A DNA stretch of 64,000 nucleotides, from assembly GCA_043808175.1 (NCBI GenBank), contig JAZDFE010000028.1, positions 17,079 through 81,078 of the forward strand. The letters are read 5' to 3'. The notes below the pieces were generated by a model that saw nothing but the letters and a program-made list of their open reading frames with translations, had not been told where the DNA came from and made no database searches. The position numbers and the translations under genes were made by a program. The DNA comes from Candidatus Omnitrophota bacterium (GTDB lineage Bacteria; Omnitrophota; Omnitrophia; Omnitrophales; Aquincolibacteriaceae). This document shows positions 5,095 to 63,736 of this stretch, piece by piece. How positions within the stretch are numbered: the stretch's first letter is position 1; each line of letters begins with the position of its first letter.

Positions 5095-5099
5095 TCACC

Positions 5100-7912: not shown

Positions 7913-7930
7913 AAAACACCGTTCTTTCGT

Positions 7931-10772: not shown

Positions 10773-10789
10773 ACACGCGTGTTCTCGCG

Positions 10790-13255: not shown

Positions 13256-13321
13256 TGTGAACCTCCAAATTAATTAAACCGTTGTAAGACTGACTATAAT
13301 AACGGAGATTTATGTGATTCT

Positions 13322-14900: not shown

Positions 14901-14928
14901 GATGGGCTGGCTCCGGACTCGCGAAGGA

Positions 14929-15834: not shown

Positions 15835-15857
15835 TTTCTTCTCCTGGGTTCTTACCT

Positions 15858-16592
15858 TTATAAAACCGGTTTATTGTTAATGATCGTTTCCGGGGCCGGA
15901 ACCTTCGACTGCCCGGGAATCAGGACTCCGTCCTGCAAACGATAGGAGCGTGCATATCTTGATGCCATCTCCTCATCGTGAGTCACGACCAGAAATGCCT
16001 GACCTTCCTGTTGATTAAGTTCGTTCAGAAGCGTCATCACTGAGCCCGCGGTCTCAGGATCCAGATTCCCGGTAGGTTCATCACAAAGCACCACGGCCGG
16101 ATGGTTCACAAGCGCCCGCGCGATTGCCACACGCTGCTGCTCACCGCCCGAAAGCTCGGAGGGGTAATGGGTCCTGCGGTTCCAAAGACGCACGCGCTTC
16201 AAAATTTCCTTGACCCACGGCTTGTTGGGCTTTCCCGCGATCAGAGTCGGCAAGAGCACATTTTCAAAAACGGTCAATTCAGGCAGCAAGTGATAGAACT
16301 GGAACACAAAACCGACTTGATGACTTCGCAACCGCGCGAGTTCCCTTTCCGACATCTCGACCATATCTTTGCCTTCAAAGAAGATCTTCCCGTCAGTCGC
16401 CCGGTCCAAACCGCCGAGAATGTGCAGCAGGGTCGATTTTCCGCAACCCGACTTTCCGGTAATAAAAACCATCTCCTCCTTGCGAACGATCAATTGAACC
16501 GAACGCAAGATCTCCAGTGTCCCAACCGGTGTCTCGTAATCTTTACGGACATCGAACGCGCTTAGCAAGGGGGCTTCTACAATGTCACTCAT
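15858..16592 (-). CDS. lolD: Lipoprotein-releasing ABC ATPase LolD
   Basis: Walker [10 protein letters not shown], signature LSGGEQQR and Walker [11 protein letters not shown]. It lies downstream of a LolC/E-type permease. Confidence 0.75.
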
Positions 16593-17892: not shown

Positions 17893-17901
17893 AAGAGCTC
17901 C

Positions 17902-46289: not shown

Positions 46290-46744
46290 GATGGCCTGTC
46301 CGTCGCGCCCTCGTGATAAATAAAGAAGATGGCGTTCAATACCTCGGAGATCCGGGCAAGGAACACCTGGGGCATGCGCCCAGTCATCGTTCGGATCTTC
46401 TCAACGGCCACGTCGTTCATGGGATCTGTCACCGCGACATAGACTTTTTTGTGGTCGCAATCGAACGCTACGACCATGTTTTCATGGCAAAAATCCGCCG
46501 TCAGCATATTGGCCATGTCGGGATTGATCGCGTAATTCTTAAGCGGGATATAAGGAACTTTGAACTGCCTGCCCAAAGCGCCGATCAGCGACTCTTCGTT
46601 CACAAGTTTTTTTTCAATGAGGATCTGTCCGATCATGCCGCCTTTTTCCTTCTGAAAAGCAAGGGCTTCCTCGAGCTGAGCCTTGGACAAAAGCCCATCC
46701 TCGATCAAGATCTCTCCGATCTTTCTCTTTTTCTTGGGTTCCAT
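46286..46744 (-). CDS. Standalone T2SSE_N / MshEN-type domain protein
   Basis: 152 aa. KIGEILIEDGLLSKAQLEEALAFQ and MIGQILIEKKLVNEESLIGALGRQ fit the tandem MshEN pattern RLGxx(L/I/V)(L/I/V)xxG(L/I/V)(L/I/V)xxxxLxxxLxxQ. There is no ATPase domain. Confidence 0.65.
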   Translation of the reverse strand: MEPKKKRKIGEILIEDGLLSKAQLEEALAFQKEKGGMIGQILIEKKLVNEESLIGALGRQFKVPYIPLKNYAINPDMANMLTADFCHENMVVAFDCDHKKVYVAVTDPMNDVAVEKIRTMTGRMPQVFLARISEVLNAIFFIYHEGATDRPS

Positions 46745-48057: not shown

Positions 48058-49259
48058 AGGTATTCAAGCGCTTTCGTCGCGGCCTTGTCCTGGATCTGAT
48101 GACGCTCCCCCCAGAAAACATGCTTCCAGGTCCGGACCGTTCCGTCGGGTGATGCAAGACCGATATAAACAAGACCGACGGGTTTTATGGAACTTCCGCC
48201 GCCGGGCCCAGCAATTCCCGTAATGCCGATCCCGAAACTTGATCCCATACGGATGCGGACCGATCTCGCGAGCTGAGAAGCGACCTGAGTTGAAACCTCT
48301 CCGTACTCCTTGATGAGCTTTCCCGAAACGCCAAGATCCGTTTTTACATTCGCATGGTACACGACCACTCCCCCGCGGAAATAAGCACTGGCTCCGGGAC
48401 AGGCCGTAAGGCGTGAAGCCAAAAGCCCGCCCGTGCAGCTTTCCGCAACGGCAAGTGTTTGCTTTTTTCTTGTCAGGATCTTTGCGATTACGACGGAAAG
48501 GGGCGTTTCATCCCAGCCGTAAATCCAGTCCTTGAGGCGGGTCGCGATCTTCTTTTTGAGCCGCCCGAGGACAGCGGTTTTCTCCGCAAGAACGCGGATC
48601 GTGATCTCACCGGCCAAAGGATAGATCCCGAAATCGAACGGATCGTCAAAAAAATCTTTTCCGAGCCTTTTCATCACATCCGGCTCCGAAATACCGGCCA
48701 TTTTCACGATCAACTTCCGGCCTTTAAAAAGGTCCCCGTATTTCTTTTTCAGGAACGGTAGGACCACGTCAAAATACATGTTCTGAAGCTCCGACGGAAC
48801 GCCGGGGAGCGCGATCACGATCTTGGATCCGGTCTCGATCGAGAATCCGAGCGCGATCCCAAAACGGTTGACAAGGGGTTTTGCGTTCTCGGGATAAAAG
48901 GCTTCGCGCTTTACAAGAGGAGGGACGCGTTTGCCGTAACGCTGATAGACTTTTTGGAGGCGGCTGTACTGCCGGGCTGAAAAAACAAGCGGGACCTTGA
49001 AATGCGCGGCGATACCTTCACGGGTCACATCATCGGGCGTCGGCCCGAGCCCTCCCATCATGACGACCAGATCCACGCGACGGAGCACCTCGCCCAACCG
49101 GAAGCGGATCGCTTCCATTGAATCCGGGCAGACGCCGTGAGAGATGACCTCGAATCCCAGGCCGGAGAGCTCACGGCCGAGGAACGCGGCATTCGTGTTG
49201 ACCACGCTCCCGCGCAAAACTTCATTGCCGACAGAGAGGATAGCAGCCGTGGGCTTCAT
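48039..49259 (-). CDS. cinA: CinA (MoCF-binding domain plus NMN amidohydrolase PncC domain)
   Basis: The N-terminus is AAILSVGNEVLRGSVVNTNA, and the C-terminal PncC-like domain has AESCTGGLL. I trimmed the start to ATG 49259, which overlaps the upstream stop (ATGA). Confidence 0.8.
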   Translation of the reverse strand: MKPTAAILSVGNEVLRGSVVNTNAAFLGRELSGLGFEVISHGVCPDSMEAIRFRLGEVLRRVDLVVMMGGLGPTPDDVTREGIAAHFKVPLVFSARQYSRLQKVYQRYGKRVPPLVKREAFYPENAKPLVNRFGIALGFSIETGSKIVIALPGVPSELQNMYFDVVLPFLKKKYGDLFKGRKLIVKMAGISEPDVMKRLGKDFFDDPFDFGIYPLAGEITIRVLAEKTAVLGRLKKKIATRLKDWIYGWDETPLSVVIAKILTRKKQTLAVAESCTGGLLASRLTACPGASAYFRGGVVVYHANVKTDLGVSGKLIKEYGEVSTQVASQLARSVRIRMGSSFGIGITGIAGPGGGSSIKPVGLVYIGLASPDGTVRTWKHVFWGERHQIQDKAATKALEYLWRKIC

Positions 49260-50269
49260 TTGAAGATCACGAACAGGATGATCCAAGCATAGAGCCCGGC
49301 ACCCAGATCGTCGGCCATGATACCCCAGAAACGCGGGATATTCTCAAGCGACCGCACGGGGAAAGGTTTGAACACGTCAAAAACCCGGAACAATACGAAC
49401 CCAAGGATCACGGAAGACCAGGTCATCGGGATTAGCATGAACGTTACGAAAATACCGCAGACTTCGTCGATCACAATATATTGTGGGTCCGGGTCCGGGT
49501 CCGTGATCCGTTCGTAAGCCAAAGCGCCCCACACGACAAAGAACACAAAAACCGCTCCGTAAAGCCCGTTGCTCCACCGGGTCAGGAAAACCAGAAAAAC
49601 ACCGAGCAAACTTCCCCACGTCCCGGGGGCTTTTGGGAAGAGCCCCACCCCCGCCGCGAGAACGAACCTATTGAACGCTTCGGATCCAAAATGAGCCCGT
49701 TGGTTCCAGAGGAACATGCCGCCCGAGACAAGCGTCAGTGCGACCGTCGTGATCAGAAGAACCGGAATAAGATAATAAAGAATACCCGTCACTGCATCGA
49801 GAGCAGGATAGGGATTCAGAAGTAAATAGGCAAAGGCGATCCACACCGTGACCGTCTGAAAACCGAATTTCAGTTTGCCCATCATCTCGGCCCCCAAGGA
49901 CTTCCCTTCAAGAAGCCATCCAGTCCGGCAGAATCTCACCAGGATCTCACGGAAAAAGATCGGGACTACCCACCAGATCGAATAAAAATGGAGGGCCGCA
50001 AAAGCAACCATCGGCGCCAGGATCAGGATCTTGTCATTAAAGGGATCGATCCACCTGCCAAAGTCGGATTCGAGTTTATACTGACGGGCGATCCAGCCGT
50101 CGAAATAATCGGTGATCGCGCCCACGATGAACAAAACAAAGGCCCAAAGATGCCCTGCCGGGCTCGGCCGCAGGATCAGGAATGGCAGAGAAAGCCCGAT
50201 CAGACCGCGCGCGATGCTCAGCACGTTCGGATTCAGGAGAGAGTATTTATATTTCGCCCACGAGGTCAT
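49256..50269 (-). CDS. pgsA: Fusion of CDP-alcohol phosphatidyltransferase (PgsA-like) and phosphatidylglycerophosphatase A (PgpA)
   Basis: The N-terminal half carries DYFDGWIARQYKLESDFGRWIDPFNDK, the D-x2-DG-x2-AR...G-x3-D-x3-D motif. The C-terminal half carries PGTWGSL...VIDEVCG...FDVFKPFP...GIMADDLGAGLYA, which is PgpA-like. Confidence 0.7.
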   Translation of the reverse strand: MTSWAKYKYSLLNPNVLSIARGLIGLSLPFLILRPSPAGHLWAFVLFIVGAITDYFDGWIARQYKLESDFGRWIDPFNDKILILAPMVAFAALHFYSIWWVVPIFFREILVRFCRTGWLLEGKSLGAEMMGKLKFGFQTVTVWIAFAYLLLNPYPALDAVTGILYYLIPVLLITTVALTLVSGGMFLWNQRAHFGSEAFNRFVLAAGVGLFPKAPGTWGSLLGVFLVFLTRWSNGLYGAVFVFFVVWGALAYERITDPDPDPQYIVIDEVCGIFVTFMLIPMTWSSVILGFVLFRVFDVFKPFPVRSLENIPRFWGIMADDLGAGLYAWIILFVIFK

Positions 50270-51689: not shown

Positions 51690-54600
51690 TTACGCGGCTT
51701 TCAAGATCTGCCGGAACGCTACATAGAGAGCTGAAATATTCTTGAGAGCGCTGAGACTCTCCGCATTGATTACGATGCGCTTTCCTATAACAAAAAATCC
51801 TGGTTTTTGTCCGGATTCCGCGACCTGTTTCAGCAACGCAATATTTGCGTCACTATTTACTAGCCCTCTTTGATTGATGCTTTGCGCTGCCTTCACGACA
51901 GCGCTCCATACCCTCGGATCGCTGGCGAAATCTTTATCCTCCCAAAGACGCAGTGCATTCACTCCATCGAACTCAAAACCGAGCAGATCAAAAGCCGCAT
52001 CAGTGCCAGAAACAACATAGCCGTTTAGGAACTTCCTAACTTCCCTTTCCCTTTGAGCTTTCGGAGAGCTCATATTGCTCACCATGACATTTTTGATCAT
52101 CTTGGATGCAAACCCAGGCTTCTTGAATTCCACGGCGATCGCACGGATCAAATCCGAAAGCTGATCCGCACTCACAGCACCGCCCAACGCGAGCACTTTA
52201 AACTCTGCATTGGGATTTAACAGATAAGCGACAAAAAGCTCTCTGAGAAATTGTCTTGCGCTCGGCACATCCGCAAACCCGCTTTCAAGGAGTCGCGCCG
52301 GCTTGCCGCCCGCATCACTCATCGGCACCGTACTGTTCGGCACCGCTTTTTGCAATTTCCTGGAAAGATCGGCATTATCCACCAGTGTTGCGATCTGCGC
52401 TAAAATGTGGACGGCCGCTTCCACACTCTCCTCCGTCGCAAGCGGCACAAGGCCACGCGTCAGAATCAACGTGACCTGCATTTCGGGCGATAGATCATCT
52501 ACCCCGACGCCTATGTCGTTTGCGATCTTGTGGAGCGCAACAAAGGAAGTCCCCTCCAGGGTCACTCTTTCACCATTCTTCAACCCTTCCCTGATCACCG
52601 CCGCCACATCCTTTTCCGCTTCTGTTATCTGCGTCTTAGCACGGGCTTGAGTCGATCCCACAGATTCCCTCGCCTCAGCGCGGGTTTCTGATCTGATCGG
52701 GGTCGTCATGCCTGTCCCAGACTCAGCAGGCGGCATTTCTTCACTAGACTGCCGGGACTGATATTCTAAAATTGCGTCAAGATAACGGTCGATTTGATTC
52801 GCATCCTCATCCGAAATATGATGCGCCAACGTCTGATCTGCCCTTCTCCTGTTAAGCTTTTTGCTTTCTTCGACGCGAATATAACGAGCATCCAGAATAA
52901 AAAGACCGTAGTTGTTTTGCAAACGCTCCATTATTTCTGCTCTTCTGGGATCCTGGCCTCTTATCATTTCAAAGTAGTCATCACTCAATAGTTCCGCCCC
53001 CGTATAGGGAAAACCAGGGCCAGAGGCGGACATGCCGCCCGCTTGCTCCTGTTGGAGAATGGATGGAACACGGAAAATCAGCATCGGCCCGAGTTCGCCT
53101 ATTTGCTCCGAGAACTGAGAAGCCTCGATTCGCTCTTCCCAACTTGCAGGGAACTTGCCTGTGGCACGATAATTGGTTTGCACGGCCGTGCCCGTCATGA
53201 TCCCTGTCTTCGAAATATTTTCCAGTTCCTGCATGCTCATTATGCGATACCGCTCTTCCCAATAAACATATTTTCCATCGGCCATTTGATCGACCTCAAA
53301 AACATACATCCGTGGGTTTTCTAACGAACCGGCAACTTTTCTAGCCAATTCGATACGGCGAGCTTTTTCAGCTTCAACAATTCCTTCGTCATAAATAATA
53401 TAAAAAAGCTCTAAACGTGCCGCCCAGGCAAGCGCCCATTGCACGTGAGCCGCCGGTTGAGCCATATGCCGCTTTATCGGGCCAACCCCTCGAGTCACAT
53501 CAAGCCATCCGCCCTCCGGTTGTCCGAATAACTTCCCGCCAACAACTAAATGGGGGATTACTGTCTTTAGTTTTGATTCCAAATCTTTTTGCTCGTGAAC
53601 CGTACGACGAAATTCCTGAACTTGCTTGATCGCAAGCTTCGTATTTTCGATAACATTGCCGGACGCCTCCGAACTAAGTTCTTCCCTTGCTTCGGAGCGG
53701 CGCTCTCCTTCACTTGTTTCTGGCACTGCCGCGGCCGGTTTCTTTTTTGTAGCCATTACATTCAGAACCAAATTGCTTTTGTCCGGGTCATAACCCATTT
53801 CTTCTTTAATATAAACAAACTCGGTCACAAATCCGCCCTGCTCATTGGCACGGTCGAATACAGTTCCTTTAAAAAGTTCCCTAAGGGAGGACAACTCCGT
53901 TTTTTTCTCCTCCGACTCGCTGGCTACTTGTTGCAATTTTTGATAATCTAAAAGGAATGGCAAGAATTTTTCACTTCGGTATTCCGAAAAAAACGACAAG
54001 ATTCCTGAAGTTGGAATATTTGCACTTGTTTCGGCTTTCTTCCGGAGAACGGGGAGTCGCTCTCGAAAAGCACGATACTTCCCAAGAACCTCCTGCCCTG
54101 CCTCTCCCCCTCTCCGATCCAATTCTTCAAAAGCCCTTTCCACCATGACCACCAATGTCATTGGGTTAATGATGTCGGTGATGGTCATGACGGTGCCCTC
54201 CGCCATTTTTTTCAAGAACTCCTCCGTAAAGTGGTTCCCGCGATCCCCAACGTCCAGACCGATCCAGTGAAGATTAAAAACAGGAGGGATGCCGTAGTGA
54301 TCACCTGACGGTGAGATCTGGATTTCACCGACACGCTCCTCCTCCCCTGGACTGTCCATCCGAACAATGGAAAAAGAGTGCAGTGGCGTGGGCGCGTCAT
54401 CATCCCTCCCTTCCTCATACTGAAGCCCGTATCGCGCGGCATCCTCCCCCGTTATTTGATAGTTCTGGATCTCTTCTAAAAATGGCCTGTCTTCGCTCGA
54501 AACATCCCTAAAAAGTTCCCCCCGCATTTCGGAACGTGGTTCCCCTTCGCCGGGGCTTACTATTTCTTCAAGCGCATTGACAACTTTGGGGTCGAACTTC

Positions 54601-57600
54601 GCAGGATCTTGACGCAACGCCGCGATGACTTCCTGTGGGGTCGACGGAGCATGATAAGGACGCTCCGAGGTCCGAGCGTCAAAGTAATCTGCCACGGTCA
54701 CAATGCTCGTCAGACGATTGACATGATTTTCTGCGTGGTGCATTTCAACGATCTTCTGCACGATCTCCCGGTACGGAACTCCCGTCGGAACCAACGCAGC
54801 ACCCGTCTGGGGGTGAAGATCCATCACGGTTTTCTCAGAAAACTCCAACGCTCTGGGTTTTTGAAGAATGCTATCCGGTACTACGATCTTTCCGAGATCG
54901 TGAAACATCGCGGCATCAGACAGGATCGTAGCATCCGCCGGACTCAATCCCATCTGCTTCGCGATCAAAAGGCTGAGATCCCGCACCCGCACTGAATGCT
55001 CGTAAAGTTCCGGATCTTTGGCCTGAAGATCTTTGATCGCGTTCTCAAAGCTCATCAGCGGCGATTCCTCCCGCATTTCGGAGCGGCCTGCGATAAGCAC
55101 AGAATAAGGCACGCGACGGCCGCCTAATTCCTCCAAGGCTTGTCTGGCTTTTTCGCGCTGAGCCTTGTGGTAAAGAGAAAGAAGCGCTTCTGCTTTGGCA
55201 GGTTTGAATGTGAGGATCTGACTGTATTTTCCCCGTTCCACGTCCATGGCTTTTTCGAGATCTTCCGGGGAAACTGCCTTTACCACTTCCGAAAGCCACG
55301 CTGTCATGCTCATGATACTGTTGATCTTAAAAAGAGGGGTGAGGTGTTCTTTTTGGACATTGATCAGTAGAAGCCGGGGAGACGTCGTTTTAGGAACTCC
55401 GGGGATCTCGCTAAGACGCCCCTTTAATTCCAACGCCAAACTGTCTAGTGTTTCAACTGTAGGCGGACCACGGTTTCTTTGGGCATCTTGATGAAACGCT
55501 GCCACCATTCCGTCCGGAGCCACCCGGAAAAGGATCGTTCCCTTTCCAAGCATCTCCTGGACCGTCTCTCCGTCTTTGATCCCAAAAAGTTCGCGTGCGA
55601 TCCCGGAAACAGCCGTGATGGTCTCATCCCCTCTATCGTAGCCGATCTCGCTTTGAAATTCATGGAACGCCCTCTCTACCGTCTTCCCCTCCGTGTAGCC
55701 CTGGACCGTGAGATGGCTCATACCGTCGATTGCGGCCTCTTTTTCCCGAACCGCTGCCTGCCCGGCCGTTTCCGTCAAAAAGCCTGTGAGCGTATCCACG
55801 ATCTCCGGATCATTTTTCTCAGAGCGGAATTTCCGTTCCTCGATCTTTTTCGCTTCTTTTTCGACCTTTGCCGGTGTCACCGCAGTTTTAACAAAGAGCC
55901 CGACAGCAGCCTGATTCCTTCCCTTATTCTTTGCTTCCGAAAGCGCGTCATTGGCCAGGCGCATCGACCACAAAGCAAATAATCCCATGCGGTTAGGCCT
56001 TAAAGTTTCTACGCCGTCTTTCATGAAAGTCCAATAATCCCCTCCGTCCTCATCCTTCACGTTCTTCATCACATCTTGTAAATACTTTAACGTCTTACCG
56101 GCGGGGACTGCGCCGATAGAAACGCTGAAAAATCCCCGCTCAGGGGTTTCGAATTGGACCCCAGAAAGCTGATCGCCTTCCAATCCCAGTTCCGTATGGA
56201 TCTTTTGCAAAAATCCGCTCCATGCCCCTTCCCCGCTCAGTTTCTGCCTGTCGACAAGAATATAGGTACCGCCCGCATAATGCGCCGCGCTAAGTACAAG
56301 GGGATCTTCCTTCAAACGCAACGTTTCAGACACGCTGAGAGTTTTAGTTTCATCCACCACCAGAACCGCATAACGTTCCCGAAACGCTAAAGTGAATTCT
56401 CGAATGACGCTCTTCAGTTCTTCCTGACCGAACTTTTCGTTTGCCAGGATCATGAATTCATCCCCGCCGGAACCACGAAACACTTTTGCTTTATATTTTT
56501 CCAAAAGCTTGAACCATTCTTCCCTCAATTTAAAGAAAGGTGATTCATTGGGTGGAAAAAGATGGTCAACCGATTTCAACAGACTTAGAACCCCTACGAT
56601 CGCTTTACCGCCGAGCGCTAAATTTTGGGCGCCGGCCTTATCGAGATCTCCGGTAATGAAAAGGAATTTTTCAAGATGAGCCACCTCGGGATGTTCCCGC
56701 AAATAATCCAAAAGTTGTTCCGTTCCTTCAGTTTTTGTTTTCCAAAAATCCCTCCAACTACCGGTCACCCCCTGCGTCATCACCCCCGTCCGCACCTCGG
56801 AACGTGGGAGGGCCATGTGTACCGCCACATCCCCAAGAGACAAGCCAGGATTCCCAAGTAAAAAGTTCCTCATTTCGGAACGTTGTTTTCCGATTTTTGC
56901 TTTTTGCGGACTTGGTTTTACGGTTTTAGGAGCAGCCTTTAAGATAGGGTCCAATTGCCGTGCGTACTGGGCGAGCTCCGGGGTCAAACGTTCTACGGCA
57001 TCTTCCGCATCGCGAACGGCCCCAGCCGCCTCTCGCTTGATAATTTCCCATTCGGCCGTTGTGTACCCTTTGGGGGAATATGCGTTCAATTTTTCGAGCT
57101 TCCGTCTGGCATCGCCGAGATATTTTCGTTCCAGGTCAGTTAAATTCTTCAAGTTAATACTGAGGCGTTTTCTCTCCCCTTGAAACCTTTTGCGATCACG
57201 TTCGTTTAAGGGTATTTTTTCTTTGAGTTTTTCCTCGAGCTTTTCCCCTTTAATTTTGTCCGCTAAGGCCTCGGCGTCCCGGATCCTGCGAAGCGCATTG
57301 GTAAGAGGCGCATTAACGTTTTCTACTTGATAGAGATCCACCGTGAGGTTCTTGAACAGCGTTACCGTATGTTGCCGGTAACTTTCGCTCAAGGCTTCCC
57401 CCATGGTTTGTTCCACCAACTGTGCTGCGAACGTTTTAACAGCAATTGCTTTCAAGTAGGTCGCAAGTCCGAAATGAAGGTTGGCTTCCTCCCCCTCGTT
57501 CCTGGGCTTTGCGGTATCTCCCAGATAAGGCGTATTGTATTTTCCGTGGAACCGCGGCCACCCGTCCTTCTCCCCGGGCCGGCCTGCAACATCCTGGGCC

Positions 57601-58301
57601 GTAGGCTCCATACGAATGTAAATGAATAGCCGCCACAGGAGATGCTGCAAAGTCGGGTCCAAGGCGATACTTTCCCGGATGGTTCTCATTTCCTTTGTAT
57701 TCAAATTGTTGTATGTTGCCGCCCGAAGCGCCTTGTAAAAAGCGTCCACGCCGGGAGTCCAATTTTTTTCTATGAGCTGCCTTACGGAACTGTCTTCGGG
57801 TGCTAGCATCGCCTCACGGAAAACATCGACCGCTGATTGAGCCTCGATCTGGAAGGGACCTGCCGCGGGACCTTTTTTCTTTTGATAAGGTTCGAACGTC
57901 GGATTTTCGAGATAGGTTAGATAGATCGCGGCGAAGGCCAAATGCTGGATGCGCTCTGCACGTTCTTTTTCGCTGGCGTTGGGATAAAGAGTGGCCTCGG
58001 AATCCCTTAAGAAAACTATGGTGTCCAGATAGTGACGGATAATACGCTGCATCTGTTCGTTTTGTATATTCTCCGTATCGATCGCCGTCAAATTACCCTG
58101 CAGCGCTTCAAGATCAAATGGGGTAAGCACTCTCACCGGTGCGACGGCCGTACTCGTTCCGGGCTCGACCACCGGCGATGCATTGTGGAACACGTAATAG
58201 ACCGCTCCTCCACTCAGCAACACCAACGATAGTGTGCCAATAGCAAATGTTAGTTTGATGCGCTCAAGCTCGGATTGGGGAATTCTTATTCGCACTCGCA
58301 C
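51690..58301 (-). CDS. Giant multi-module protein (2203 aa): TM anchor, SLT-like, GGDEF, degenerate GGDEF, HD-GYP-like and three unassigned modules, separated by RSExR linkers
   Basis: It is one uninterrupted ORF. The GTG start at 58301 overlaps the upstream giant gene by 16 nt. It has a TM helix (LTFAIGTLSLVLLSGGAVYYVF), a GGDEF motif (FRGSGGDEFMIL), an HD motif (FHDLGK) and six in-frame RSExR motifs. Confidence 0.8.
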   Translation of the reverse strand: MRVRIRIPQSELERIKLTFAIGTLSLVLLSGGAVYYVFHNASPVVEPGTSTAVAPVRVLTPFDLEALQGNLTAIDTENIQNEQMQRIIRHYLDTIVFLRDSEATLYPNASEKERAERIQHLAFAAIYLTYLENPTFEPYQKKKGPAAGPFQIEAQSAVDVFREAMLAPEDSSVRQLIEKNWTPGVDAFYKALRAATYNNLNTKEMRTIRESIALDPTLQHLLWRLFIYIRMEPTAQDVAGRPGEKDGWPRFHGKYNTPYLGDTAKPRNEGEEANLHFGLATYLKAIAVKTFAAQLVEQTMGEALSESYRQHTVTLFKNLTVDLYQVENVNAPLTNALRRIRDAEALADKIKGEKLEEKLKEKIPLNERDRKRFQGERKRLSINLKNLTDLERKYLGDARRKLEKLNAYSPKGYTTAEWEIIKREAAGAVRDAEDAVERLTPELAQYARQLDPILKAAPKTVKPSPQKAKIGKQRSEMRNFLLGNPGLSLGDVAVHMALPRSEVRTGVMTQGVTGSWRDFWKTKTEGTEQLLDYLREHPEVAHLEKFLFITGDLDKAGAQNLALGGKAIVGVLSLLKSVDHLFPPNESPFFKLREEWFKLLEKYKAKVFRGSGGDEFMILANEKFGQEELKSVIREFTLAFRERYAVLVVDETKTLSVSETLRLKEDPLVLSAAHYAGGTYILVDRQKLSGEGAWSGFLQKIHTELGLEGDQLSGVQFETPERGFFSVSIGAVPAGKTLKYLQDVMKNVKDEDGGDYWTFMKDGVETLRPNRMGLFALWSMRLANDALSEAKNKGRNQAAVGLFVKTAVTPAKVEKEAKKIEERKFRSEKNDPEIVDTLTGFLTETAGQAAVREKEAAIDGMSHLTVQGYTEGKTVERAFHEFQSEIGYDRGDETITAVSGIARELFGIKDGETVQEMLGKGTILFRVAPDGMVAAFHQDAQRNRGPPTVETLDSLALELKGRLSEIPGVPKTTSPRLLLINVQKEHLTPLFKINSIMSMTAWLSEVVKAVSPEDLEKAMDVERGKYSQILTFKPAKAEALLSLYHKAQREKARQALEELGGRRVPYSVLIAGRSEMREESPLMSFENAIKDLQAKDPELYEHSVRVRDLSLLIAKQMGLSPADATILSDAAMFHDLGKIVVPDSILQKPRALEFSEKTVMDLHPQTGAALVPTGVPYREIVQKIVEMHHAENHVNRLTSIVTVADYFDARTSERPYHAPSTPQEVIAALRQDPAKFDPKVVNALEEIVSPGEGEPRSEMRGELFRDVSSEDRPFLEEIQNYQITGEDAARYGLQYEEGRDDDAPTPLHSFSIVRMDSPGEEERVGEIQISPSGDHYGIPPVFNLHWIGLDVGDRGNHFTEEFLKKMAEGTVMTITDIINPMTLVVMVERAFEELDRRGGEAGQEVLGKYRAFRERLPVLRKKAETSANIPTSGILSFFSEYRSEKFLPFLLDYQKLQQVASESEEKKTELSSLRELFKGTVFDRANEQGGFVTEFVYIKEEMGYDPDKSNLVLNVMATKKKPAAAVPETSEGERRSEAREELSSEASGNVIENTKLAIKQVQEFRRTVHEQKDLESKLKTVIPHLVVGGKLFGQPEGGWLDVTRGVGPIKRHMAQPAAHVQWALAWAARLELFYIIYDEGIVEAEKARRIELARKVAGSLENPRMYVFEVDQMADGKYVYWEERYRIMSMQELENISKTGIMTGTAVQTNYRATGKFPASWEERIEASQFSEQIGELGPMLIFRVPSILQQEQAGGMSASGPGFPYTGAELLSDDYFEMIRGQDPRRAEIMERLQNNYGLFILDARYIRVEESKKLNRRRADQTLAHHISDEDANQIDRYLDAILEYQSRQSSEEMPPAESGTGMTTPIRSETRAEARESVGSTQARAKTQITEAEKDVAAVIREGLKNGERVTLEGTSFVALHKIANDIGVGVDDLSPEMQVTLILTRGLVPLATEESVEAAVHILAQIATLVDNADLSRKLQKAVPNSTVPMSDAGGKPARLLESGFADVPSARQFLRELFVAYLLNPNAEFKVLALGGAVSADQLSDLIRAIAVEFKKPGFASKMIKNVMVSNMSSPKAQREREVRKFLNGYVVSGTDAAFDLLGFEFDGVNALRLWEDKDFASDPRVWSAVVKAAQSINQRGLVNSDANIALLKQVAESGQKPGFFVIGKRIVINAESLSALKNISALYVAFRQILKAA
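54567..55019 (-). other. HD-GYP-family phosphohydrolase domain with degenerate GYP
   Basis: HSVRVRDL, FHDLGK, DLHPQTG and VADYFDARTSERPY are present. HHAENHVNRL stands in place of HHExxDGxGYP. Confidence 0.6.
55497..55799 (-). other. Second, degenerate GGDEF-like domain (RGDET)
   Basis: It starts with DTLTGFL and has YDRGDET (55620..55634) where GGDEF would be. Confidence 0.45.
55902..56684 (-). other. GGDEF (diguanylate cyclase-type) domain with intact GGDEF
   Basis: FITGDLDKAGAQN (metal-site-like), SGGDEF (56454..56468), SVSIGAV and ANDALSEAKNKGRNQ follow the canonical GGDEF order. An internal insertion is present. Confidence 0.65.
57612..57974 (-). other. Lytic-transglycosylase (SLT)-like segment within the 2203-aa protein
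   Basis: YLENPTFEP...GPAAGPFQIEAQSA...ALRAATYNNL parallels the SLT pattern ES...GxxGLMQI...AYNxG. The match is loose. Confidence 0.35.
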
Positions 58302-61300
58302 TTCGGAGCGGGTGGAGGGAGGCTGTTGTTCTTCGGCTTTGGCGCTATCATCGATCCGGCATTCGCACGAGGCTCTGCCAGAGCATTGATCAATGCATCG
58401 ATCCGCGCGGATCTTCCTGCGTCCAGGCGGTCCGCATTTTGTTCTTTGATTACACTCAAAGCCTGCCGGACCGTTGCCCCAAGAGCCTCTTGCCGTATCC
58501 GTATCAAGCTCAGAATGTCTTCCGACGTCCCACCGAGGAACCTCTGAAGATCCTGGGGGTCGATCGAAGCCACATCGCGTACGGCTTGAACCAGGAACTC
58601 AGGACTCATTTCACTCAACGCATCCAACACCAAGGGACCATCGAATGAGAACGGTGTACCGATCGGCTGGATCTCGGTGGCATTGGTCAGATCAAAAAGG
58701 GCATAGTAGCGGCGTCCGTCGATCCTGGACATGCCAACATTGTGATCCAGCTTGAAATCCGTAGCTCCGGTAAGCGCCAAGAACGCTAGGATCCTTTCAA
58801 TACCCGAGGTGCGCGACTCGACCAATTCCGGCAAAGTTAGTTCTTTCGCATCACGGGATAAAATGGCATTTATAAAACCCAGCTGATCGATGTCGTAGCC
58901 TAAGCCCATAATCTGGGCACTCCAATAACGTAAAAATTTTTCGGGCATCGATAGATCTTCTACGGAAGTCTCGGTCCAACGTGGGGTATTCACGCCTACA
59001 AGCGCTGCCAAACGGTATCCTCTTACTTCTTTCTCCATTTCACGCGGGTCATCCACTTTCAAATACCATTTTTCATTCGTAGTCCTGTCATTGACGTACC
59101 AAGCGTACTCGGGAACTCTTTTCAAAACCTCTAAATCGGCCGCTTTGGGAAACGCCGACGGTTGCTCGCCTGCCCGCGCTTCGGAGCGGGCTAAGAGTTG
59201 CTCGCCTTCCCTTCCTTCGGAGCGCTTGCCCTCAGCAGCTTTGGTAAAAGCAGCACTGGATTTCCGGATGATGACGTAATGGATGTCGCGATCTTCCAGC
59301 TTCCCGGCGCTGAAGGATTCGATCCCGGTCTCGGCTTGTTCTTCTGGAGAGCCCCTGACACTGCCTGAGATTGTCGGAACTTCACCCTGCGGATAAGCCA
59401 CCACCAAGATCCCGCCGGGTCTGACCTTGTCTCGAAAAATACCCGCCAGTGTTTGAGAAGAAAGAACGGCGCTCGGCACAACCACCCAAGCGGCCAGCCC
59501 CTCACTTTGCCCGAAATCTCCTTGTTCATTCATGACAAGACCGCCGGCAGCAGTATCAATTCCCAAGTCAAAACGTTCAGCAATTTCCTGAATACGGCTT
59601 GCCACCCAGGCCACGGTCGAAACACTTATTTGATCCGCTGCCTGCTGAGGTTTTCTTTTCGAACCAACAGTTTCCCACTCAACCTTGGGCCTTGGATGAA
59701 GCTGCATCCTGGTTTCTATGATTTCCCGGATCCGGGAAATACCTCCGTCCTCACTCCCCGCCACTCCCCTAACTTCGGAGCGGGCTTCGGGTCCTTGTTC
59801 CGCTGACCGCGCCGACGCACCGGACATGGGCGCGAAGTAAGCATCGAACTCTCTTTGTTCACGCTGGTAGTAGCCGGTGAATGCATCGCCGTAGGGTTTT
59901 CGGTAATTACGGATATCTAGCAGCGGCACCAGCTCCCCGGCAAAAGAATGGTCATCCGCGATCCGATGATCAAAAACCGTGGCCGTCGCGCCGGTATAGA
60001 AAAAACGCTCCCCTCCTTCAGATTGCCGAAGAATATTGATTTCCTCGGGAGTGAGTATTTCGGATAGAGACGGCATCGGACGGATAGAAATCGTCGTGAC
60101 CTGAGCTCCGTCGATACCGGTGAGCATTTCCTGGACACGGCTGGTCATGTATGGAACGGCTACGATCACTTTCGGCTGGAGAAGCCCCCACTTCCGGTAA
60201 TAATCCGCAACCGATTTAATCGTGTTGTTGAGCTGCTCACCGCTATACGCCGCATCGTCGACGATTAAAAACGTACCGATCCCCTGGTCGGCCATATTTT
60301 TGAGCGACTGGGTCATGGGTTCAGCCCGTCCCTGGAAATAGTTCGCCGCAGCGGCAGGCCTGCTTAACAAGGTTTGAAGCAGCGAATAGGTCCAGCGTCG
60401 CGATGAATGTGGCTTGTAGTCCCAAAGGGCCGCGTAGGGGCGGCCGTCTTTTTCGATTTCCTCGTTGATACGACCTGCAAGCTCACGCAGGCTGAAACGG
60501 AATTCCTCGAAAGTCACATGATGGAAAGCGCCGAGAAGCTTTTGCTTCACCGCAACGGCTTCGGGGCTTCCAGACATCTTCCAAACATCCGCCTTTCCCA
60601 TATCGAGCGCGACGGTACCCGGCTCGGGAACGTCCGTGGAGGGCAAAACAGACGGCGGCTCGCCTGCCCGCATTTCCGAGCGCTGTTTTCCAAGAACTTC
60701 CGTCGCTTCGGTTGGAACTTCGGGTTTTGCGGCAGGAGGTAGTACGGCTGGTCCTTCGGTACCTGGTACCGTTGCGGCCGCTTGCAATTTCAATATCGCT
60801 TTTTTCAGAGCTAGGATCGCTGCCTCAGATTCCTCTTTCGTGATCCTGTTTTGATCGGTCGTAAAAATGCAATCAATGATGCCTACAACTTCGAAGATCC
60901 TTTTTCCATTTTCAAAGCCAACTTCCCGAATAATGTAATTGCTTGGATTTTCATCCCAAAAGAGCAACTGCGGCTTTTTTCCCATGATATCACGGATCAT
61001 TTTTTCGATCTGATCGGCGACATCCTTTAACTCTTCATGGCTTAATCGATTGGCAACTTTATCAAGCGGAAGATCAGGGAACCATTCACGGACCACGGCA
61101 ACGGCTTTCCTGTCATTCGTCTGGATCTCCCCATACAATTTCGGGATGCCTTTCATTCCTTGGGTTATCCGCAAAACGGCCGCTTCGTCAGAAATATTTT
61201 CCGAGGATTTTCCCGGATCCAGGGTCCCGATAAGTCCTCCCACCATCTTGATCGCCACTTCTTGACCGTCCACTTTTCCATGATACGTATCTCCAAATGT

Positions 61301-63736
61301 CCGGCGATGAAAGAGATCCTTCTTAGGGTTCATGATGCCCAAGGCCGCCAAAATTTGTCTTTGATAATCGATGATGTCCTGCCCTTCCTTTTTCCATGGG
61401 TCGATTTTGCTAATGACACCACCTTTCGCATCAAAAGAGATGGTTCTTGTTTGACGCACCTCGGAGCGCACCGGTTTTGCCACCTCGGAGGTGGCAGAGC
61501 GGGTTGAGAAAAACGCTCCCATCGCCTGGGCAACCGTGGCGGCAAATTCAGCCGTAGGGACTCCCGCATTTGCCGCACCTACAGATACAAGATCCCGAAC
61601 GTCACTTTCGGCCTTAGCCGCCTCTGGTGCTTTGACTTCGCCTGCCTTAATCGCGTTCTGCGTTGTTTCCCCAACTTGTCCAAGCTGACCTGCTAATCGC
61701 ATCGCGAAAACCACTGCCGCAGGATTTGTAGTTGGTAAGGCTGTACCCGCCATGGTTCCAACGACGTCCCGGATCTGAAAAGGTGTCGCAAGAATTTTCC
61801 CAATGTCGAATGCAGATACCTGTGTTTGGATTTTCGTTGAAACAACCTTGTAAAAATTTTGTCCCGTTTTTTCGATCCGGATTTCCGCACGGACTGCCAT
61901 TTCAGACTTGTTAAATATTTGAACGGCATCCTCCACACTGCCAGCCTGCCCGACAGCGCCAATAGCCCGTAATTCGGACTTAAGACGGCCTGCCATGGCA
62001 GTTTTCCCGATCTGTGCCACTTGCACTGTCAGGGGCATCAATGGCGACGTAGTCTCCAAGTACGATAGTTCAAAAAGACTGGGTTTGTTTTGTAACATCA
62101 CGTTGCGATATAGGTTTTCGTTTGATTTTTCGCTGAGGCGCGGGGTGAGGGTGCCGTAGCTTATTTCATGTTCCCTTAGGAGTTCCGTGATCCCGTCCGT
62201 GTGGAAACCGCCGGTAATGAGCACCGCTTTGTTGAGCGACTCTTTCCGCATCACCGAATCGATCTTTTCGTAGAAAACGTCTTCGCGCTTCCGAGCCGCC
62301 TCGTAGAACCCGTAGGCCGCCGTCTGAACCCCTACCACTTCTCCACGGAATTTGGGATTGACCGGCTTTGTCTCGAAATTGGAAAGTGGCAAGCCGGACT
62401 CCTGACTTACCGCCGTTCCAATCTCCTTAAGTTCCGCGACGAGTGGATCCATCGCGAGTAGGTCTTTTTTTGCGAGGACCTCCTGCCAGTCCTTACGGGT
62501 CAATTCGAGGTTAAGGAGCTTACGGACCAATTCTTCGCTCCGGTACAGCTCCAGCAATTTTTTCTCGCGCTGGCTTACGGCCAGCTGATCCAGGATCCGC
62601 GTGAACAGGACCCTGATCTCGCCAAAAAGCCCTTTCGGGTCCATTTCGCTTTTGAGGATGAGATAACCGGCATAAAGACTGAAATGCGGATAATTGTAAA
62701 AATAAAAACCTTTAGGCCCTGCCTCGGTGACGAGTTGCTCCATCAGGTCGCGCGGCTCGACCGGTGCCGCCGCGCCGCCCCGAGTCCCTTGCAGCACGGT
62801 CACCTGCTGGTCCCGGAAATTCTCGATCGCTGTAATGAGGTTCGCCGAGACCCGTTTTTCTTTGAGGAATTTGATCAGTTGGTCCCGTTCCGCCAGGCCC
62901 TTTTGCATATCCAGTTCTTTTTCCATTGTCTGGAGCACTAGAAGCCGTGTGATCTGCGGCCACTCGATCTGAGAAAGCAGGCTTTCGAGGTCGATGCCGA
63001 GCACTCGCTTCGACTCGGCTGCGAGGCCTTTCACATAAGGCATGAACTCCCGATGCCCCGCTTCAAATTTTTTCCATTCCCCGAGAAGCTTCAGCAGGTC
63101 CTTCGAGAAAACCTTGGAAGCCAGCGACGAGAGCCGCCCCTCGAAACCGTTCAGATAACGCTTCACCGTCACTTCCGCGCCAAAGACTTTTTTGAGCGCT
63201 TCGTAGTTCTCGCGGTAAAGTCCCGCATCTTCGATCCCATGCGCCTTCGGTGTGCTCAACGCCTGTTTTCCTTCCGTTGCGCTGTCTTGTTCCATTAAAT
63301 ACAACTCCGCGCCCGTGAGTTCCCCTTGTTTCGCCAAAAATTCCGCAAGCTTCAGGTTCCGCTCCCGGTCCGGGAACATCTTGAGATAATCGGGATTAAG
63401 ATCTTCCGAAGCGCCTTCCACGAAGATCGTTTTCATCGCGTAATGCCTCTCTAAGTACTGCAGAAGCTCTTTAATCTTTTGCTGCGCTCCGTAATTGGCG
63501 TGCGCATTCTGAATGTGGAGAATGAGTTTAGGGTCTTGCCGCGGAGGCGCTTCATACAATCCGTCAAGCGTTGCGAGTTCTGAGGGGATATCGATCCTGA
63601 GAAAACTGGGCAATTCCCGGCTGACCGCGATCTCGATCCCGGCACCGGGATTTGCGAACGCGACCTGGGAAACAAGAAAAAATCCCATTGTCAGTAAACT
63701 GACCGCCCGAGTCATTATTTTCTTTTTAGTTTTCAT
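58286..63736 (-). CDS. Giant secreted multi-module protein (1816 aa): signal peptide, ChaN/Tiki-like, protein-kinase-like, PRTase-like, unassigned and HipA/PI-kinase-like modules, separated by RSExR linkers
   Basis: It is one uninterrupted ORF with the RBS GAGGAG before ATG 63736. The Sec signal peptide is MKTKKKIMTRAVSLLTMGFFLVSQVAFA. There are five in-frame RSExR motifs. Confidence 0.8.
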   Translation of the reverse strand: MKTKKKIMTRAVSLLTMGFFLVSQVAFANPGAGIEIAVSRELPSFLRIDIPSELATLDGLYEAPPRQDPKLILHIQNAHANYGAQQKIKELLQYLERHYAMKTIFVEGASEDLNPDYLKMFPDRERNLKLAEFLAKQGELTGAELYLMEQDSATEGKQALSTPKAHGIEDAGLYRENYEALKKVFGAEVTVKRYLNGFEGRLSSLASKVFSKDLLKLLGEWKKFEAGHREFMPYVKGLAAESKRVLGIDLESLLSQIEWPQITRLLVLQTMEKELDMQKGLAERDQLIKFLKEKRVSANLITAIENFRDQQVTVLQGTRGGAAAPVEPRDLMEQLVTEAGPKGFYFYNYPHFSLYAGYLILKSEMDPKGLFGEIRVLFTRILDQLAVSQREKKLLELYRSEELVRKLLNLELTRKDWQEVLAKKDLLAMDPLVAELKEIGTAVSQESGLPLSNFETKPVNPKFRGEVVGVQTAAYGFYEAARKREDVFYEKIDSVMRKESLNKAVLITGGFHTDGITELLREHEISYGTLTPRLSEKSNENLYRNVMLQNKPSLFELSYLETTSPLMPLTVQVAQIGKTAMAGRLKSELRAIGAVGQAGSVEDAVQIFNKSEMAVRAEIRIEKTGQNFYKVVSTKIQTQVSAFDIGKILATPFQIRDVVGTMAGTALPTTNPAAVVFAMRLAGQLGQVGETTQNAIKAGEVKAPEAAKAESDVRDLVSVGAANAGVPTAEFAATVAQAMGAFFSTRSATSEVAKPVRSEVRQTRTISFDAKGGVISKIDPWKKEGQDIIDYQRQILAALGIMNPKKDLFHRRTFGDTYHGKVDGQEVAIKMVGGLIGTLDPGKSSENISDEAAVLRITQGMKGIPKLYGEIQTNDRKAVAVVREWFPDLPLDKVANRLSHEELKDVADQIEKMIRDIMGKKPQLLFWDENPSNYIIREVGFENGKRIFEVVGIIDCIFTTDQNRITKEESEAAILALKKAILKLQAAATVPGTEGPAVLPPAAKPEVPTEATEVLGKQRSEMRAGEPPSVLPSTDVPEPGTVALDMGKADVWKMSGSPEAVAVKQKLLGAFHHVTFEEFRFSLRELAGRINEEIEKDGRPYAALWDYKPHSSRRWTYSLLQTLLSRPAAAANYFQGRAEPMTQSLKNMADQGIGTFLIVDDAAYSGEQLNNTIKSVADYYRKWGLLQPKVIVAVPYMTSRVQEMLTGIDGAQVTTISIRPMPSLSEILTPEEINILRQSEGGERFFYTGATATVFDHRIADDHSFAGELVPLLDIRNYRKPYGDAFTGYYQREQREFDAYFAPMSGASARSAEQGPEARSEVRGVAGSEDGGISRIREIIETRMQLHPRPKVEWETVGSKRKPQQAADQISVSTVAWVASRIQEIAERFDLGIDTAAGGLVMNEQGDFGQSEGLAAWVVVPSAVLSSQTLAGIFRDKVRPGGILVVAYPQGEVPTISGSVRGSPEEQAETGIESFSAGKLEDRDIHYVIIRKSSAAFTKAAEGKRSEGREGEQLLARSEARAGEQPSAFPKAADLEVLKRVPEYAWYVNDRTTNEKWYLKVDDPREMEKEVRGYRLAALVGVNTPRWTETSVEDLSMPEKFLRYWSAQIMGLGYDIDQLGFINAILSRDAKELTLPELVESRTSGIERILAFLALTGATDFKLDHNVGMSRIDGRRYYALFDLTNATEIQPIGTPFSFDGPLVLDALSEMSPEFLVQAVRDVASIDPQDLQRFLGGTSEDILSLIRIRQEALGATVRQALSVIKEQNADRLDAGRSARIDALINALAEPRANAGSMIAPKPKNNSLPPPAPKCECE
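58289..59173 (-). other. C-terminal HipA / PI3-PI4-kinase-like module
   Basis: WYLKV (Lys), EVRGYRLAALVGV and LTGATDFKLDHNVG...YYALFDL resemble the GxxDxHxxN...(A)YD/DFG layout. Confidence 0.4.
60230..60271 (-). other. Phosphoribosyltransferase-type PRPP-loop motif
   Basis: FLIVDDAAYSGEQL matches four hydrophobic residues, two acidic residues and xx(S/T)Gx(T/Q)L. I verified the codons on the minus strand. Confidence 0.5.
60842..61339 (-). other. Protein-kinase-like module
   Basis: VAIKM supplies the beta-3 Lys. WDENPSNYI has the D-x-x-P-x-N catalytic-loop pattern. IIDC is the DFG-equivalent Asp. They occur in the canonical order. Confidence 0.5.
62132..63529 (-). other. ChaN/Tiki/TraB-superfamily-like region (tentative)
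   Basis: ILHIQNAHANYGAQ...IFVEGAS near the start and VLITGGFHT near the end resemble the GxxH...E...GxxH layout of that superfamily. This is pattern-level similarity only. Confidence 0.3.

Follow-up and report, generated by a model that had tools for sequence, protein, structure and literature searches.

A recurrent R-[S/A/P]-E-x-R pentapeptide flanks the enzyme-like cassettes of an Omnitrophota protein family and is a candidate signal for polyprotein separation

The last large open reading frame (ORF) of a 64,000-nucleotide stretch of Candidatus Omnitrophota DNA (assembly GCA_043808175.1, contig JAZDFE010000028.1, positions 17,079 to 81,078; hereafter the window), located at 58286..63736(-), encodes a protein of 1816 amino acids (aa) that carries several unrelated enzyme-like cassettes behind a signal peptide. 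Every cassette is flanked by a pentapeptide of the form R-[S>A>P]-E-x-R, with low-confidence flanks in the AlphaFold2 (AF2) models. Judged by sequence comparison, the protein belongs to a multi-copy family almost confined to Omnitrophota, composed of a signal peptide, a conserved head of ~530 aa and variable cassettes, to which at least nine members add a conserved tail. The interpretation that we favor, with a probability of about 0.4, is that these chains are polyproteins separated at the pentapeptide, and that only the units provided with a signal of their own would leave the cytoplasm. Thus, the kinases and the phosphoribosyltransferase (PRTase) encoded among the cassettes would probably work inside the cell. 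NCBI holds an entry identical to the 1816-aa protein, coming from a Candidatus Omnitrophota metagenome-assembled genome and annotated as 'hypothetical protein'.

Five RSExR copies (starting at residues 757, 1019, 1319, 1505, and 1517) divide the C-terminal part of the protein into four modules, which are arranged as follows:

63653..63736, minus strand: Sec type I signal peptide, residues 1-28 (MKTKKKIMTRAVSLLTMGFFLVSQVAFA, followed by NP), from sequence and homolog alignment
62057..63652, minus strand: conserved head domain (N-terminal domain, NTD), residues 29-560, from homolog alignment and AF2 model
61469..62056, minus strand: post-head region, residues 561-756, partly structured, with degenerate KSELR and KSEM..R copies
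61454..61468, minus strand: RSEVR, residues 757-761
60683..61453, minus strand: cassette 1, residues 762-1018, probable minimal Hanks-type kinase (eukaryotic protein kinase-like, ePK-like), from profile search and alignment
60668..60682, minus strand: RSEMR, residues 1019-1023
59783..60667, minus strand: cassette 2, residues 1024-1318, putative PRTase of the PRTase-CE type, from PF24390 and the homolog family
59768..59782, minus strand: RSEVR, residues 1319-1323
59225..59767, minus strand: cassette 3, residues 1324-1504, module without family match
59174..59224, minus strand: double junction, RSEGR (1505-1509) plus RSEAR (1517-1521)
58337..59173, minus strand: cassette 4, residues 1522-1800, predicted kinase-like fold of the CtkA / PI4K type II / HipA kind

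The first analysis of this DNA, made from its letters and ORFs without database searches (hereafter the sequence-only reading), had singled out the range 58289-61468, which corresponds to residues 757-1816, its start coinciding with the first RSEVR. Every motif quoted in that reading was located in the ORF, i.e., VAIK (827), WDENPSNY (927), IIDC (953) and FLIVDDAAYSGEQL (1156), followed in cassette 4 by WYLKV (1557), GATDFKLDHNVG (1657), and ALFDL (1679). Cassette 3 is a fourth module that it did not describe.

The pentapeptide is a property of the whole family. In 99 proteins, RSExR occurs in 277 copies against about 4 expected, all of them lie downstream of the head, and no flanking position is conserved. 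The second position of the motif is occupied by Ser (274), Ala (82), or Pro (14), the expected numbers being 4, 6, and 2.8. The density of the motif reaches 1.33 per 1,000 aa in head-bearing ORFs, compared with 0.105 in the other open frames of the same loci. Homology blocks start or stop within about 5-22 residues of the motifs in the relatives P0100, P0101, and P0104; motifs enclose cassette 1 in P0100 and P0104 and cassette 4 in P0100 and P0101. The HD and HPr domains of the family each make up one whole cassette, and the AF2 confidence is below 50 at the residues adjoining the motifs. A role of the motif Ser as nucleophile or modification site was discarded, since Ala and Pro substitute for it. 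Among the results listed by searches of the open-access literature, no relevant paper contained the motif strings; a description elsewhere is possible.

The position of the motif is also linked to that of internal targeting signals. Internal hydrophobic segments begin at most 15 aa after a motif in 25 of 83 cases (5.9% expected), and at most 30 aa after it in 45% (11% expected). Internal signals of the Sec, twin-arginine translocation (Tat), and lipoprotein types begin just after motifs; three canonical twin-arginine signals, DRRDFLK, SRRDFV with an LTGC lipobox, and SRRNLLLG, are placed 8-18 aa past motifs in P0034 (residue 827), P0040 (residue 1285), and P0100 (residue 4398). According to crude measures of hydrophobicity and charge, in which the arginines of the motif contribute to the N-flank, the N side of the first internal hydrophobic segment is the more positive one in 32 cases versus 9 (p = 4e-4), the figures being 18 versus 7 when the motif arginines fall outside the flank. 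By the positive-inside rule, a positive N side would place the cassettes ahead of the segment on the cytoplasmic side, in conflict with an uncut chain whose front was exported by the N-terminal signal. In some relatives, a receiver directly follows the head as the first cassette, without an intervening membrane segment, and the same applies to an HPr cassette, while a glycogen-synthase-like cassette is found in a relative lacking any internal membrane segment. It is hard to see what receiver, HPr, and glycogen-synthase-like cassettes would do outside a cell. Internal membrane segments are absent from 30 of 74 head-bearing proteins, and the 1816-aa protein has no hydrophobic segment between the head and cassette 4. 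The sequence-only reading had assumed that the N-terminal signal exports the enzyme modules, but this signal belongs to the head, and R[SAP]ExR separates it from the cassettes; the internal signals after the motifs, the N-in preference and the nature of the cassettes just mentioned argue in the same direction.

A total of 98 other proteins (1,000-3,147 aa) match the query only in residues ~1-560/640, and beyond the head their cargo differs: it includes (d)CMP kinase, HATPase, NUDIX, Fic, ART-PolyVal, APH, GlnE-type nucleotidyltransferase, methyltransferases, receiver, HPr, FHA, trypsin, glycogen synthase, PEP-utilising enzymes, and FBPase II. Larger relatives of 4,000-7,165 aa open with the identical arrangement of signal peptide and head. 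A scan of one genome per species confirmed 212 related loci, 79 of which were kept; they are labeled as Omnitrophota/Omnitrophica, 'uncultured bacterium' and, in one case, Candidatus Taenariivivens, and several paralogs are present per genome. Omnitrophota are ultrasmall bacteria of wide distribution, and predatory or parasitic members are known. Word-indexed homolog searches queried with the last 1,055 aa or the cassette-4 alignment returned the query alone or no match, and the homologs of the cassettes come from an exhaustive search over 1.84 billion representative proteins, of which the best 150 of 168 matches were considered. Scans of the whole protein against Pfam, NCBIfam, and PDB sequences gave only a weak PRTase match.

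The signal peptide postulated by the sequence-only reading has the classical layout, MKTKKKIMTR / AVSLLTMGFFLVSQV / AFA followed by NP, i.e., a positive n-region, an uncharged core of 18 aa and a cleavage site. By a heuristic check, the h-region is hydrophobic, the residues at -3 and -1 are small, and there is no Pro at +1. The -3/-1 rule is kept at the aligned cleavage site in 67 of 76 homologs, with Ala (49) or Gly (19) at -1 and Pro at +2 in 61; the median presequence of these 76 N-termini measures 25 aa, and the median net charge of their n-region is +3. A Shine-Dalgarno sequence, GAGGAG, is located 6 nt 5' of the ATG.

The head is the only region common to all 98 homologs, and it is always N-terminal. 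Its alignment contains the invariant residues H79, E107, G108, and GGFH (509-512). The AF2 model has a mean pLDDT (predicted local distance difference test) of 79, mostly above 90 across residues 50-545, and it predicts a small alpha/beta core with a large helical insert. No significant relative of the head was found in Pfam, among PDB sequences or by Foldseek, which gave weak, non-significant matches to erythromycin-esterase-like structures; the head has an invariant His/Glu/His set. The post-head region (561-756) is present in some homologs only, and its AF2 confidence is below 60 beyond ~residue 635.

Cassette 1 is probably a minimal Hanks-like kinase, its fold being deduced from sequence profiles. 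Its key residues are K830 (VAIK), E851, D928 and N933 (WDENPSN), and D955 (IID). The first four are retained in all three cassette-1 sequences; in the third sequence, an Asp (LID) lies one position off D955 and stays unmatched in the gap-free MAFFT alignment. The profile of these three sequences retrieved Mycobacterium tuberculosis PknA four times from PDB (E 0.0075-0.011), over 79 columns only, the alignment spanning strands 4-5, the hinge and the catalytic loop, with WDENPSN facing HRDVKPGN. The protein-kinase-like core that the sequence-only reading noted from VAIK to IIDC agrees with this match, which stays in register through the catalytic loop, and with the Lys, Asp, and Asn kept in the three sequences. 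Cassette 1 has no Pfam match at E<=10, and only ~60 residues remain after the DFG-equivalent Asp. Only two homologs appear among the best 150 of 168 matches of the exhaustive search; both are internal segments of giant proteins with a head, and RSExR copies lie within about 5-22 residues of their ends.

Cassette 4 is predicted to have a protein-kinase fold. It was modeled alone, because the joint MAFFT alignment of the four cassettes misplaced its distant homologs, and the AF2 model reached a pLDDT of 88.6 and a predicted template modeling score (pTM) of 0.85. All 50 best Foldseek matches shown against PDB are kinases, the top one being Helicobacter pylori CtkA (E 3.8e-4, probability 1.00), and PI4KIIalpha also has a probability of 1.00. 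K1560, D1660, N1666, and D1682 are invariant in 17/17 sequences (16 usable homologs plus the query). The sequence-only reading had proposed a resemblance to HipA or PI3/4 kinases: the kinase fold, the PI4KIIalpha match and the invariant residues agree with it, but the likeness to HipA is weaker. The hhalign comparison with Escherichia coli HipA gave a probability of 46%, the PDB profile search gave an E of about 1.7, and the HipA_C Pfam model did not match cassette 4 itself and matched 2 of 17 homologs at E 0.04. Cassette 4 has its own helical C-terminal extension, and the spacing from Asp to Asn is 6 and variable. No relationship between cassettes 1 and 4 was found by hhalign, and they constitute two uncurated kinase families.

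Cassette 2 can be filed as a divergent relative of PRTase-CE. Taken alone, it matches PF24390 with 18.1 bits and an E of 0.0027, below the 27-bit gathering cut-off, and 32 of the 39 members of its family match this model at E<=0.01 (best E 5.8e-12). The conserved elements are WDYKPHSSRRW, FLIVDDAAYSGEQ, VPY.T, and FDH..D..S. The loop FLIVDDAAYSGEQ (DD..Y.G.Q), of the type that binds phosphoribosyl pyrophosphate (PRPP), has invariant D138 (local numbering) and Q145, with D137, Y141, and G143 conserved in at least 90% of the sequences; one Ser and one Trp are also invariant, and His and Asp positions reach at least 90%. The PRTase-type loop noticed in the sequence-only reading is thus real and near-invariant in this family. 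Many stand-alone relatives of ~300 aa match the whole cassette. Three of them (P0110, P0249, and P0250), PRTase-CE-like proteins of 307 aa, are encoded in contigs of 127-182 kb of Candidatus Levybacteria (Candidate Phyla Radiation, CPR/Patescibacteria), and hence the cassette-2 family is common to two ultrasmall-cell lineages. The literature search found no publication containing 'PRTase-CE', and the family appears to correspond to the group of PRTases from invasive elements described by Iyer et al. (2017; PMC5512222). A phage or plasmid origin was considered and rejected, as cassettes 2 and 4 retrieved nothing from phages by tblastn, nor did cassette 2 from plasmids. Concerning cassette 3, neither Pfam nor PDB provided a match, and a single partial homolog (P0137) was found.

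Because their catalytic residues are retained, the kinase and PRTase cassettes are probably active enzymes. The three points on which the sequence-only reading could have failed have turned out in its favor: the N-terminus looks like a signal peptide, the modules are predicted to have enzymatic folds, and the catalytic residues are conserved.

The ORF called in the window is real, but its length of 1816 aa is probably an artifact of a frameshift at ~58337-58340. The features of this region are the following:

58337..58340, minus strand: frameshift site CCAAAGCC, after which the frame of the relatives goes on in the -1 frame, from linker homology
58296..58310, minus strand: RSEVR in the downstream frame, whose GTG Val codon was taken for the start of the next ORF
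58188..58253, minus strand: predicted internal transmembrane segment LTFAIGTLSLVLLSGGAVYYVF, 14 aa past RSEVR, from hydrophobicity and charge flanks
51690..58301, minus strand: putative continuation of the same protein, called as a 2203-aa ORF, from frame-switching homology
51693..52679, minus strand: conserved tail domain (C-terminal domain, CTD), ending in ..YVAFRQILKAA, from nine family C-termini

After cassette 4, P0100 reads ...NAGSTVAPKAEEQQPPVTRSEMR, and the linker of the relative, APKAEEQQPPVTRSEMR, corresponds to the upstream frame up to APK and then to the -1 frame as KAEEQQPPSTRSEVR. The upstream frame stops 16 codons past the frameshift site. The fused reading aligns with the related locus L005 as one unbroken high-scoring segment pair across the junction. 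The GTG proposed as start of the downstream ORF, i.e., the Val codon of RSEVR, is not preceded by a Shine-Dalgarno sequence. Residues 1-478 of the downstream ORF, which include the membrane helix, share 76% identity with a segment inside P0100 (6270 aa). The frame-switching linker, the unbroken alignment, the missing Shine-Dalgarno sequence, the internal homology with P0100 and the presence of the tail domain argue for a single gene, and we read the downstream ORF as the same protein after a 1-nt frameshift, with a predicted fused length of ~4,015 aa. The frameshift may be a sequencing error, a mutation or a slip on A-AAG. A -1 slip of the Lys-tRNA from AAG to AAA would restore the homologous peptide APKAEEQQ. 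Programmed -1 frameshifting was rejected as a family trait, since only one relative has an overlapping giant gene in the -1 frame, the others being stand-alone or gapped.

The fused protein would comprise the signal peptide, the head, about ten autonomous single-domain cassettes with 12 motifs, and the tail. Its front half contains the ePK-like mini-kinase, the PRTase-CE, the module without match and the CtkA/PI4KII-like kinase, and its second half a membrane-anchored module, a GGDEF-like cassette, an HD cassette and a PD-(D/E)XK-like cassette. The downstream ORF has six more RSExR copies, the GGDEF-like motif at 56454-56474, the HD cassette at 54537-55070, the PD-(D/E)XK-like cassette, and the tail. 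The segment LTFAIGTLSLVLLSGGAVYYVF has five Lys/Arg on its N-flank and none on its C-flank, and the same cassette is internal in P0100. The motif GSGGDEF at 56454-56474 (residue 610 of the downstream ORF) is typical of diguanylate cyclases; its cassette does not match the Pfam GGDEF model and may be a very divergent or degenerate GGDEF domain. A lytic transglycosylase suspected by eye at 57813-57914 (YLENPTFEP...GPFQIE, similar to ES...GLMQ) was dismissed, as neither Pfam nor the PDB profile search supported it.

The tail, i.e., the last 329 residues, is exactly C-terminal in nine head-bearing proteins (P0009, P0012, P0024, P0025, P0032, P0035, P0041, P0042, and P0045). It was discarded as a protease because no catalytic set is conserved in its alignment. 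It always ends in ..(L/I)x(A/E)AFxx(I/L)xxAA-COOH, and the final Ala-Ala recalls the tails recognized by the ssrA and tail-specific-protease systems. Head and tail are both uncurated families.

Other loci show different gene layouts. In L051 (DCTJ01000069.1, UBA1443; 2319-19220), a related giant gene is spread over at least four overlapping frames with RSExR motifs, which suggests multiple frameshifts in that older assembly. In L045 (9971-21618) and L064 (9890-21694), head proteins of ~1,080-1,180 aa are followed on the same strand by headless motif-rich frames of more than 2,700 aa, the second open frame of L064 being in the same frame as the head ORF, past a gap of 150 nt. This layout indicates that the head and the cassette array can also be separate genes.

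In the polyprotein interpretation, the pentapeptide would mark where the chain is split into separate proteins, the simplest agent being an endoprotease on the cytoplasmic side, and the destination of each product would depend on the targeting information it carries. For the head, the exit would be through Sec; the cassettes starting with a signal peptide, a Tat signal, a lipobox or an anchor would be exported or inserted in the membrane; and those lacking a signal, including both kinases and the PRTase, would remain in the cytoplasm of the producer, where ATP and PRPP are available. We infer the cut, its agent and its compartment from the anatomy of the proteins, the motif statistics, the enzyme assignments and the positions of the signals described above. 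Several facts weigh against this proposal. No cleavage product is known, no protease was found, and the codon bias of the motif exceeds what its amino acids need, which is unexpected for a cut site working purely at the protein level. The head is always first and the tail always last, suggesting a chain that acts or travels as a unit. Polytopic proteins that are not cut also make use of internal signal-anchors, the Rieske protein of Streptomyces has an internal Tat signal, and the crudeness of the charge measures has already been mentioned. The Cmk and GlgA cassettes of the relatives score below the equivalog cut-offs, and thus they are not plainly housekeeping enzymes; for this reason, the idea that the cassettes are the housekeeping enzymes of the cell was abandoned. 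Finally, several cassettes are classic conflict effectors, such as the PRTase-CE and the CtkA-like kinase, together with Fic, ART-PolyVal, and NUDIX in the relatives.

The repertoire of cassettes lends some weight to an exported multi-effector array, in which the whole unfolded chain would pass through Sec and the cassettes would fold outside, may be released there at the motif, e.g., by the head acting as a hydrolase, and would act in or on a prey or host in the manner of MARTX toxins and polyvalent proteins. We consider this alternative, the main rival, unlikely. The conserved signal peptide, the fixed order with the head first and the tail last, and the invariant His/Glu/His set of the head together with its weak matches to erythromycin esterases would suit it, and so would the overlap with conflict effectors, which extends to the invasive-element PRTases (PMC5512222); moreover, the literature leans to extracellular or effector roles for the Omnitrophota long proteins bearing signal peptides. 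The structure nearest to cassette 4 is that of CtkA, a kinase that is secreted and enters host cells. However, the analysis revealed no route by which the cassettes would cross the outer membrane or enter another cell. The type IV pilus locus, which the sequence-only reading regarded as adjacent, is 5 kb away with housekeeping genes in between, and it was not seen in three related neighborhoods. In addition, the first internal membrane segment is mostly N-in, the Tat signals after motifs imply folding in the cytoplasm, receiver, HPr, and GlgA-like cassettes are unlikely effectors, and there is no ATP or PRPP outside the cell. From the effector interpretation of the sequence-only reading, therefore, the signal peptide, the three conserved nucleotide-using folds and the conflict-like repertoire stand, whereas the export of the modules by the N-terminal signal is not supported.

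The same fixed polarity from head to tail would suit a single functional unit that is never cut, i.e., a membrane-associated multi-enzyme scaffold whose pentapeptide would serve as a hinge or as the docking site of a shared partner, e.g., a chaperone, a translocon factor or a regulator. P0100 could be accommodated in this way, as its signal peptide, its membrane segment at 3918 and its Tat-like segment at 4398 give a consistent alternating topology, and, according to the preprint of 2026 (bioRxiv 10.64898/2026.06.07.730766), 39% of the long proteins have a signal peptide plus transmembrane helices and 46% membrane helices only. Nevertheless, we find such a scaffold improbable: in several proteins, consecutive isolated membrane segments are all positive on the N-flank (NN, NNN), the N-in count is again 32 versus 9, the 30 of 74 proteins without internal segment would leave whole enzyme arrays outside the cell, and a strict pentapeptide at every junction is unusual for a hinge. 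A primary role of the motif as a nucleic-acid or translation signal, either as a DNA/RNA element for cassette shuffling or as a recoding or ribosome-skipping site that needs no protease, is what the codon usage would favor. The consensus from the window motifs and loci L004-L082 is CGY-TCC-GAR-NNG-MGG: the first Arg is CGY in 82% (background 40%), Ser is TCC in 53% (background 20%), the x codon mostly ends in G, and the last Arg is AGG/CGG in 58% (background 39%). The same cassettes also occur in differing orders and contexts among paralogs, several of which coexist per genome. Against it, the last Arg is encoded by both AGG and CGG, and x is free at codon positions 1-2, which leaves only ~9 nt fixed, and without exception the motif is read in a single frame of the coding strand. 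The x codon is ATG or GTG in only 34% of cases (~40% with CTG and TTG), so that internal initiation cannot be general, and we know of no comparable skipping signal in bacteria. This possibility is thus very improbable in our opinion.

Multi-enzyme long proteins were already known in this phylum, to which the present analysis adds the junction motif and its association with targeting signals inside the chain. Omnitrophota giants of at least 30,000 aa (West-Roberts et al., 2023; bioRxiv 10.1101/2023.11.21.568195) and long proteins of at least 10,000 aa (Nielsen and Lui, 2026; bioRxiv 10.64898/2026.06.07.730766) have been described. The giants, including the Archaeovorins, are also chains tiled with unrelated enzyme domains, many of the same kinds (kinases, methyltransferases, NUDIX, HD, GGDEF, receiver, and sugar enzymes), they commonly have an N-terminal signal peptide and scattered membrane helices, and they pose the same paradox of cytoplasm-type enzymes placed behind an export signal. 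In contrast, the protein of the window has 1,816 aa as called or ~4,015 aa when fused, and its relatives reach 7,165 aa, all below the lengths that define the giants. The passages searched and read in both preprints mention no conserved head, tail or junction motif; the preprints do raise the questions of whether the chains undergo cleavage and of which side of the membrane bears the enzymes, and one of them calls the cleavage points unknown.

The closest concept is that of the polyvalent proteins (Iyer et al., 2017; PMC5512222), which join 2-15 unrelated catalytic domains per chain in phages and conjugative elements, carry kinases, distinct invasive-element PRTases, HD domains, and ADP-ribosyltransferases (ARTs), and for which a proteolytic release of the domains has been proposed. 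The Omnitrophota family shares with them the combination of several unrelated catalytic domains, including PRTase, kinase, HD, and ART (ART-PolyVal in a relative). Unlike them, it is chromosomal, multi-copy and placed beside housekeeping genes, with no tblastn match in phages (cassettes 2 and 4) or plasmids (cassette 2), and it combines a Sec signal peptide with a head and a fixed pentapeptide at the junctions. A zincin-like peptidase embedded in the chain was not detected.

The MARTX and polymorphic toxins resemble the family in having a conserved N-terminal part for delivery followed by a variable array of effector domains, and the MARTX effector domains are freed by site-specific cleavage between domains, at a Leu-X site. 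The differences are that no secretion context of type I, V, VI, or VII is found here, that the candidate cut signal is a strict pentapeptide, and that the cassettes include signaling and metabolic domains; Pfam and NCBIfam scans of both ORFs detected no RTX repeats, cysteine protease domain or type I secretion. Cassette 4 shares with CtkA, PI4K type II, and HipA the kinase-like fold and the conserved Lys, Asp, Asn, and Asp, and its GATD....N resembles the catalytic loop of HipA, ATDGHAKN; it differs in its marginal sequence similarity, its Asp-Asn spacing and its own C-terminal extension. Viral polyproteins offer the parallel of one frame giving many proteins, with short conserved junction motifs and products in different locations, but here the genome is cellular, the cut sites are candidates, and no protease was found.

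Housekeeping genes neighbor the gene in the window and in the related neighborhoods. Promoter and terminator scans at the gene ends were not informative. Elsewhere in the window, a single ORF at 49256-50269(-) joins a CDP-alcohol phosphatidyltransferase (PgsA-like) domain and a PgpA phosphatidylglycerophosphatase domain, which correspond to consecutive steps of phosphatidylglycerol synthesis. The pilus region at 42829-46744(-) encodes tandem PilB/GspE-type ATPases of 589 and 564 aa, which are preceded by an ORF of 152 aa consisting only of an MshEN domain and followed by PilC and PilM.

The presence of the motif across the sampled Omnitrophota genomes provides concrete candidate cut sites, and it gives a rule to split these proteins into units for structural, localization, and proteomic work. 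Together with the link to internal signals, it makes the question of the processing and location of the enzymes directly testable. In a broader and rather doubtful extension, a sizeable share of the proteome might consist of true polyproteins, i.e., operons in one frame, split at R-[SAP]-E-x-R by a dedicated protease or by translational skipping into units with their own Sec, Tat, lipoprotein or anchor signal, or with none, the giants then being precursors and not functional giants. If the chains are exported whole, the motif defines a new format for the delivery of multiple effectors. If they are cut on the cytoplasmic side, the paradox of enzymes that use ATP and PRPP behind an export signal would disappear, and this family would represent the first large-scale use of polyproteins by a cellular organism.

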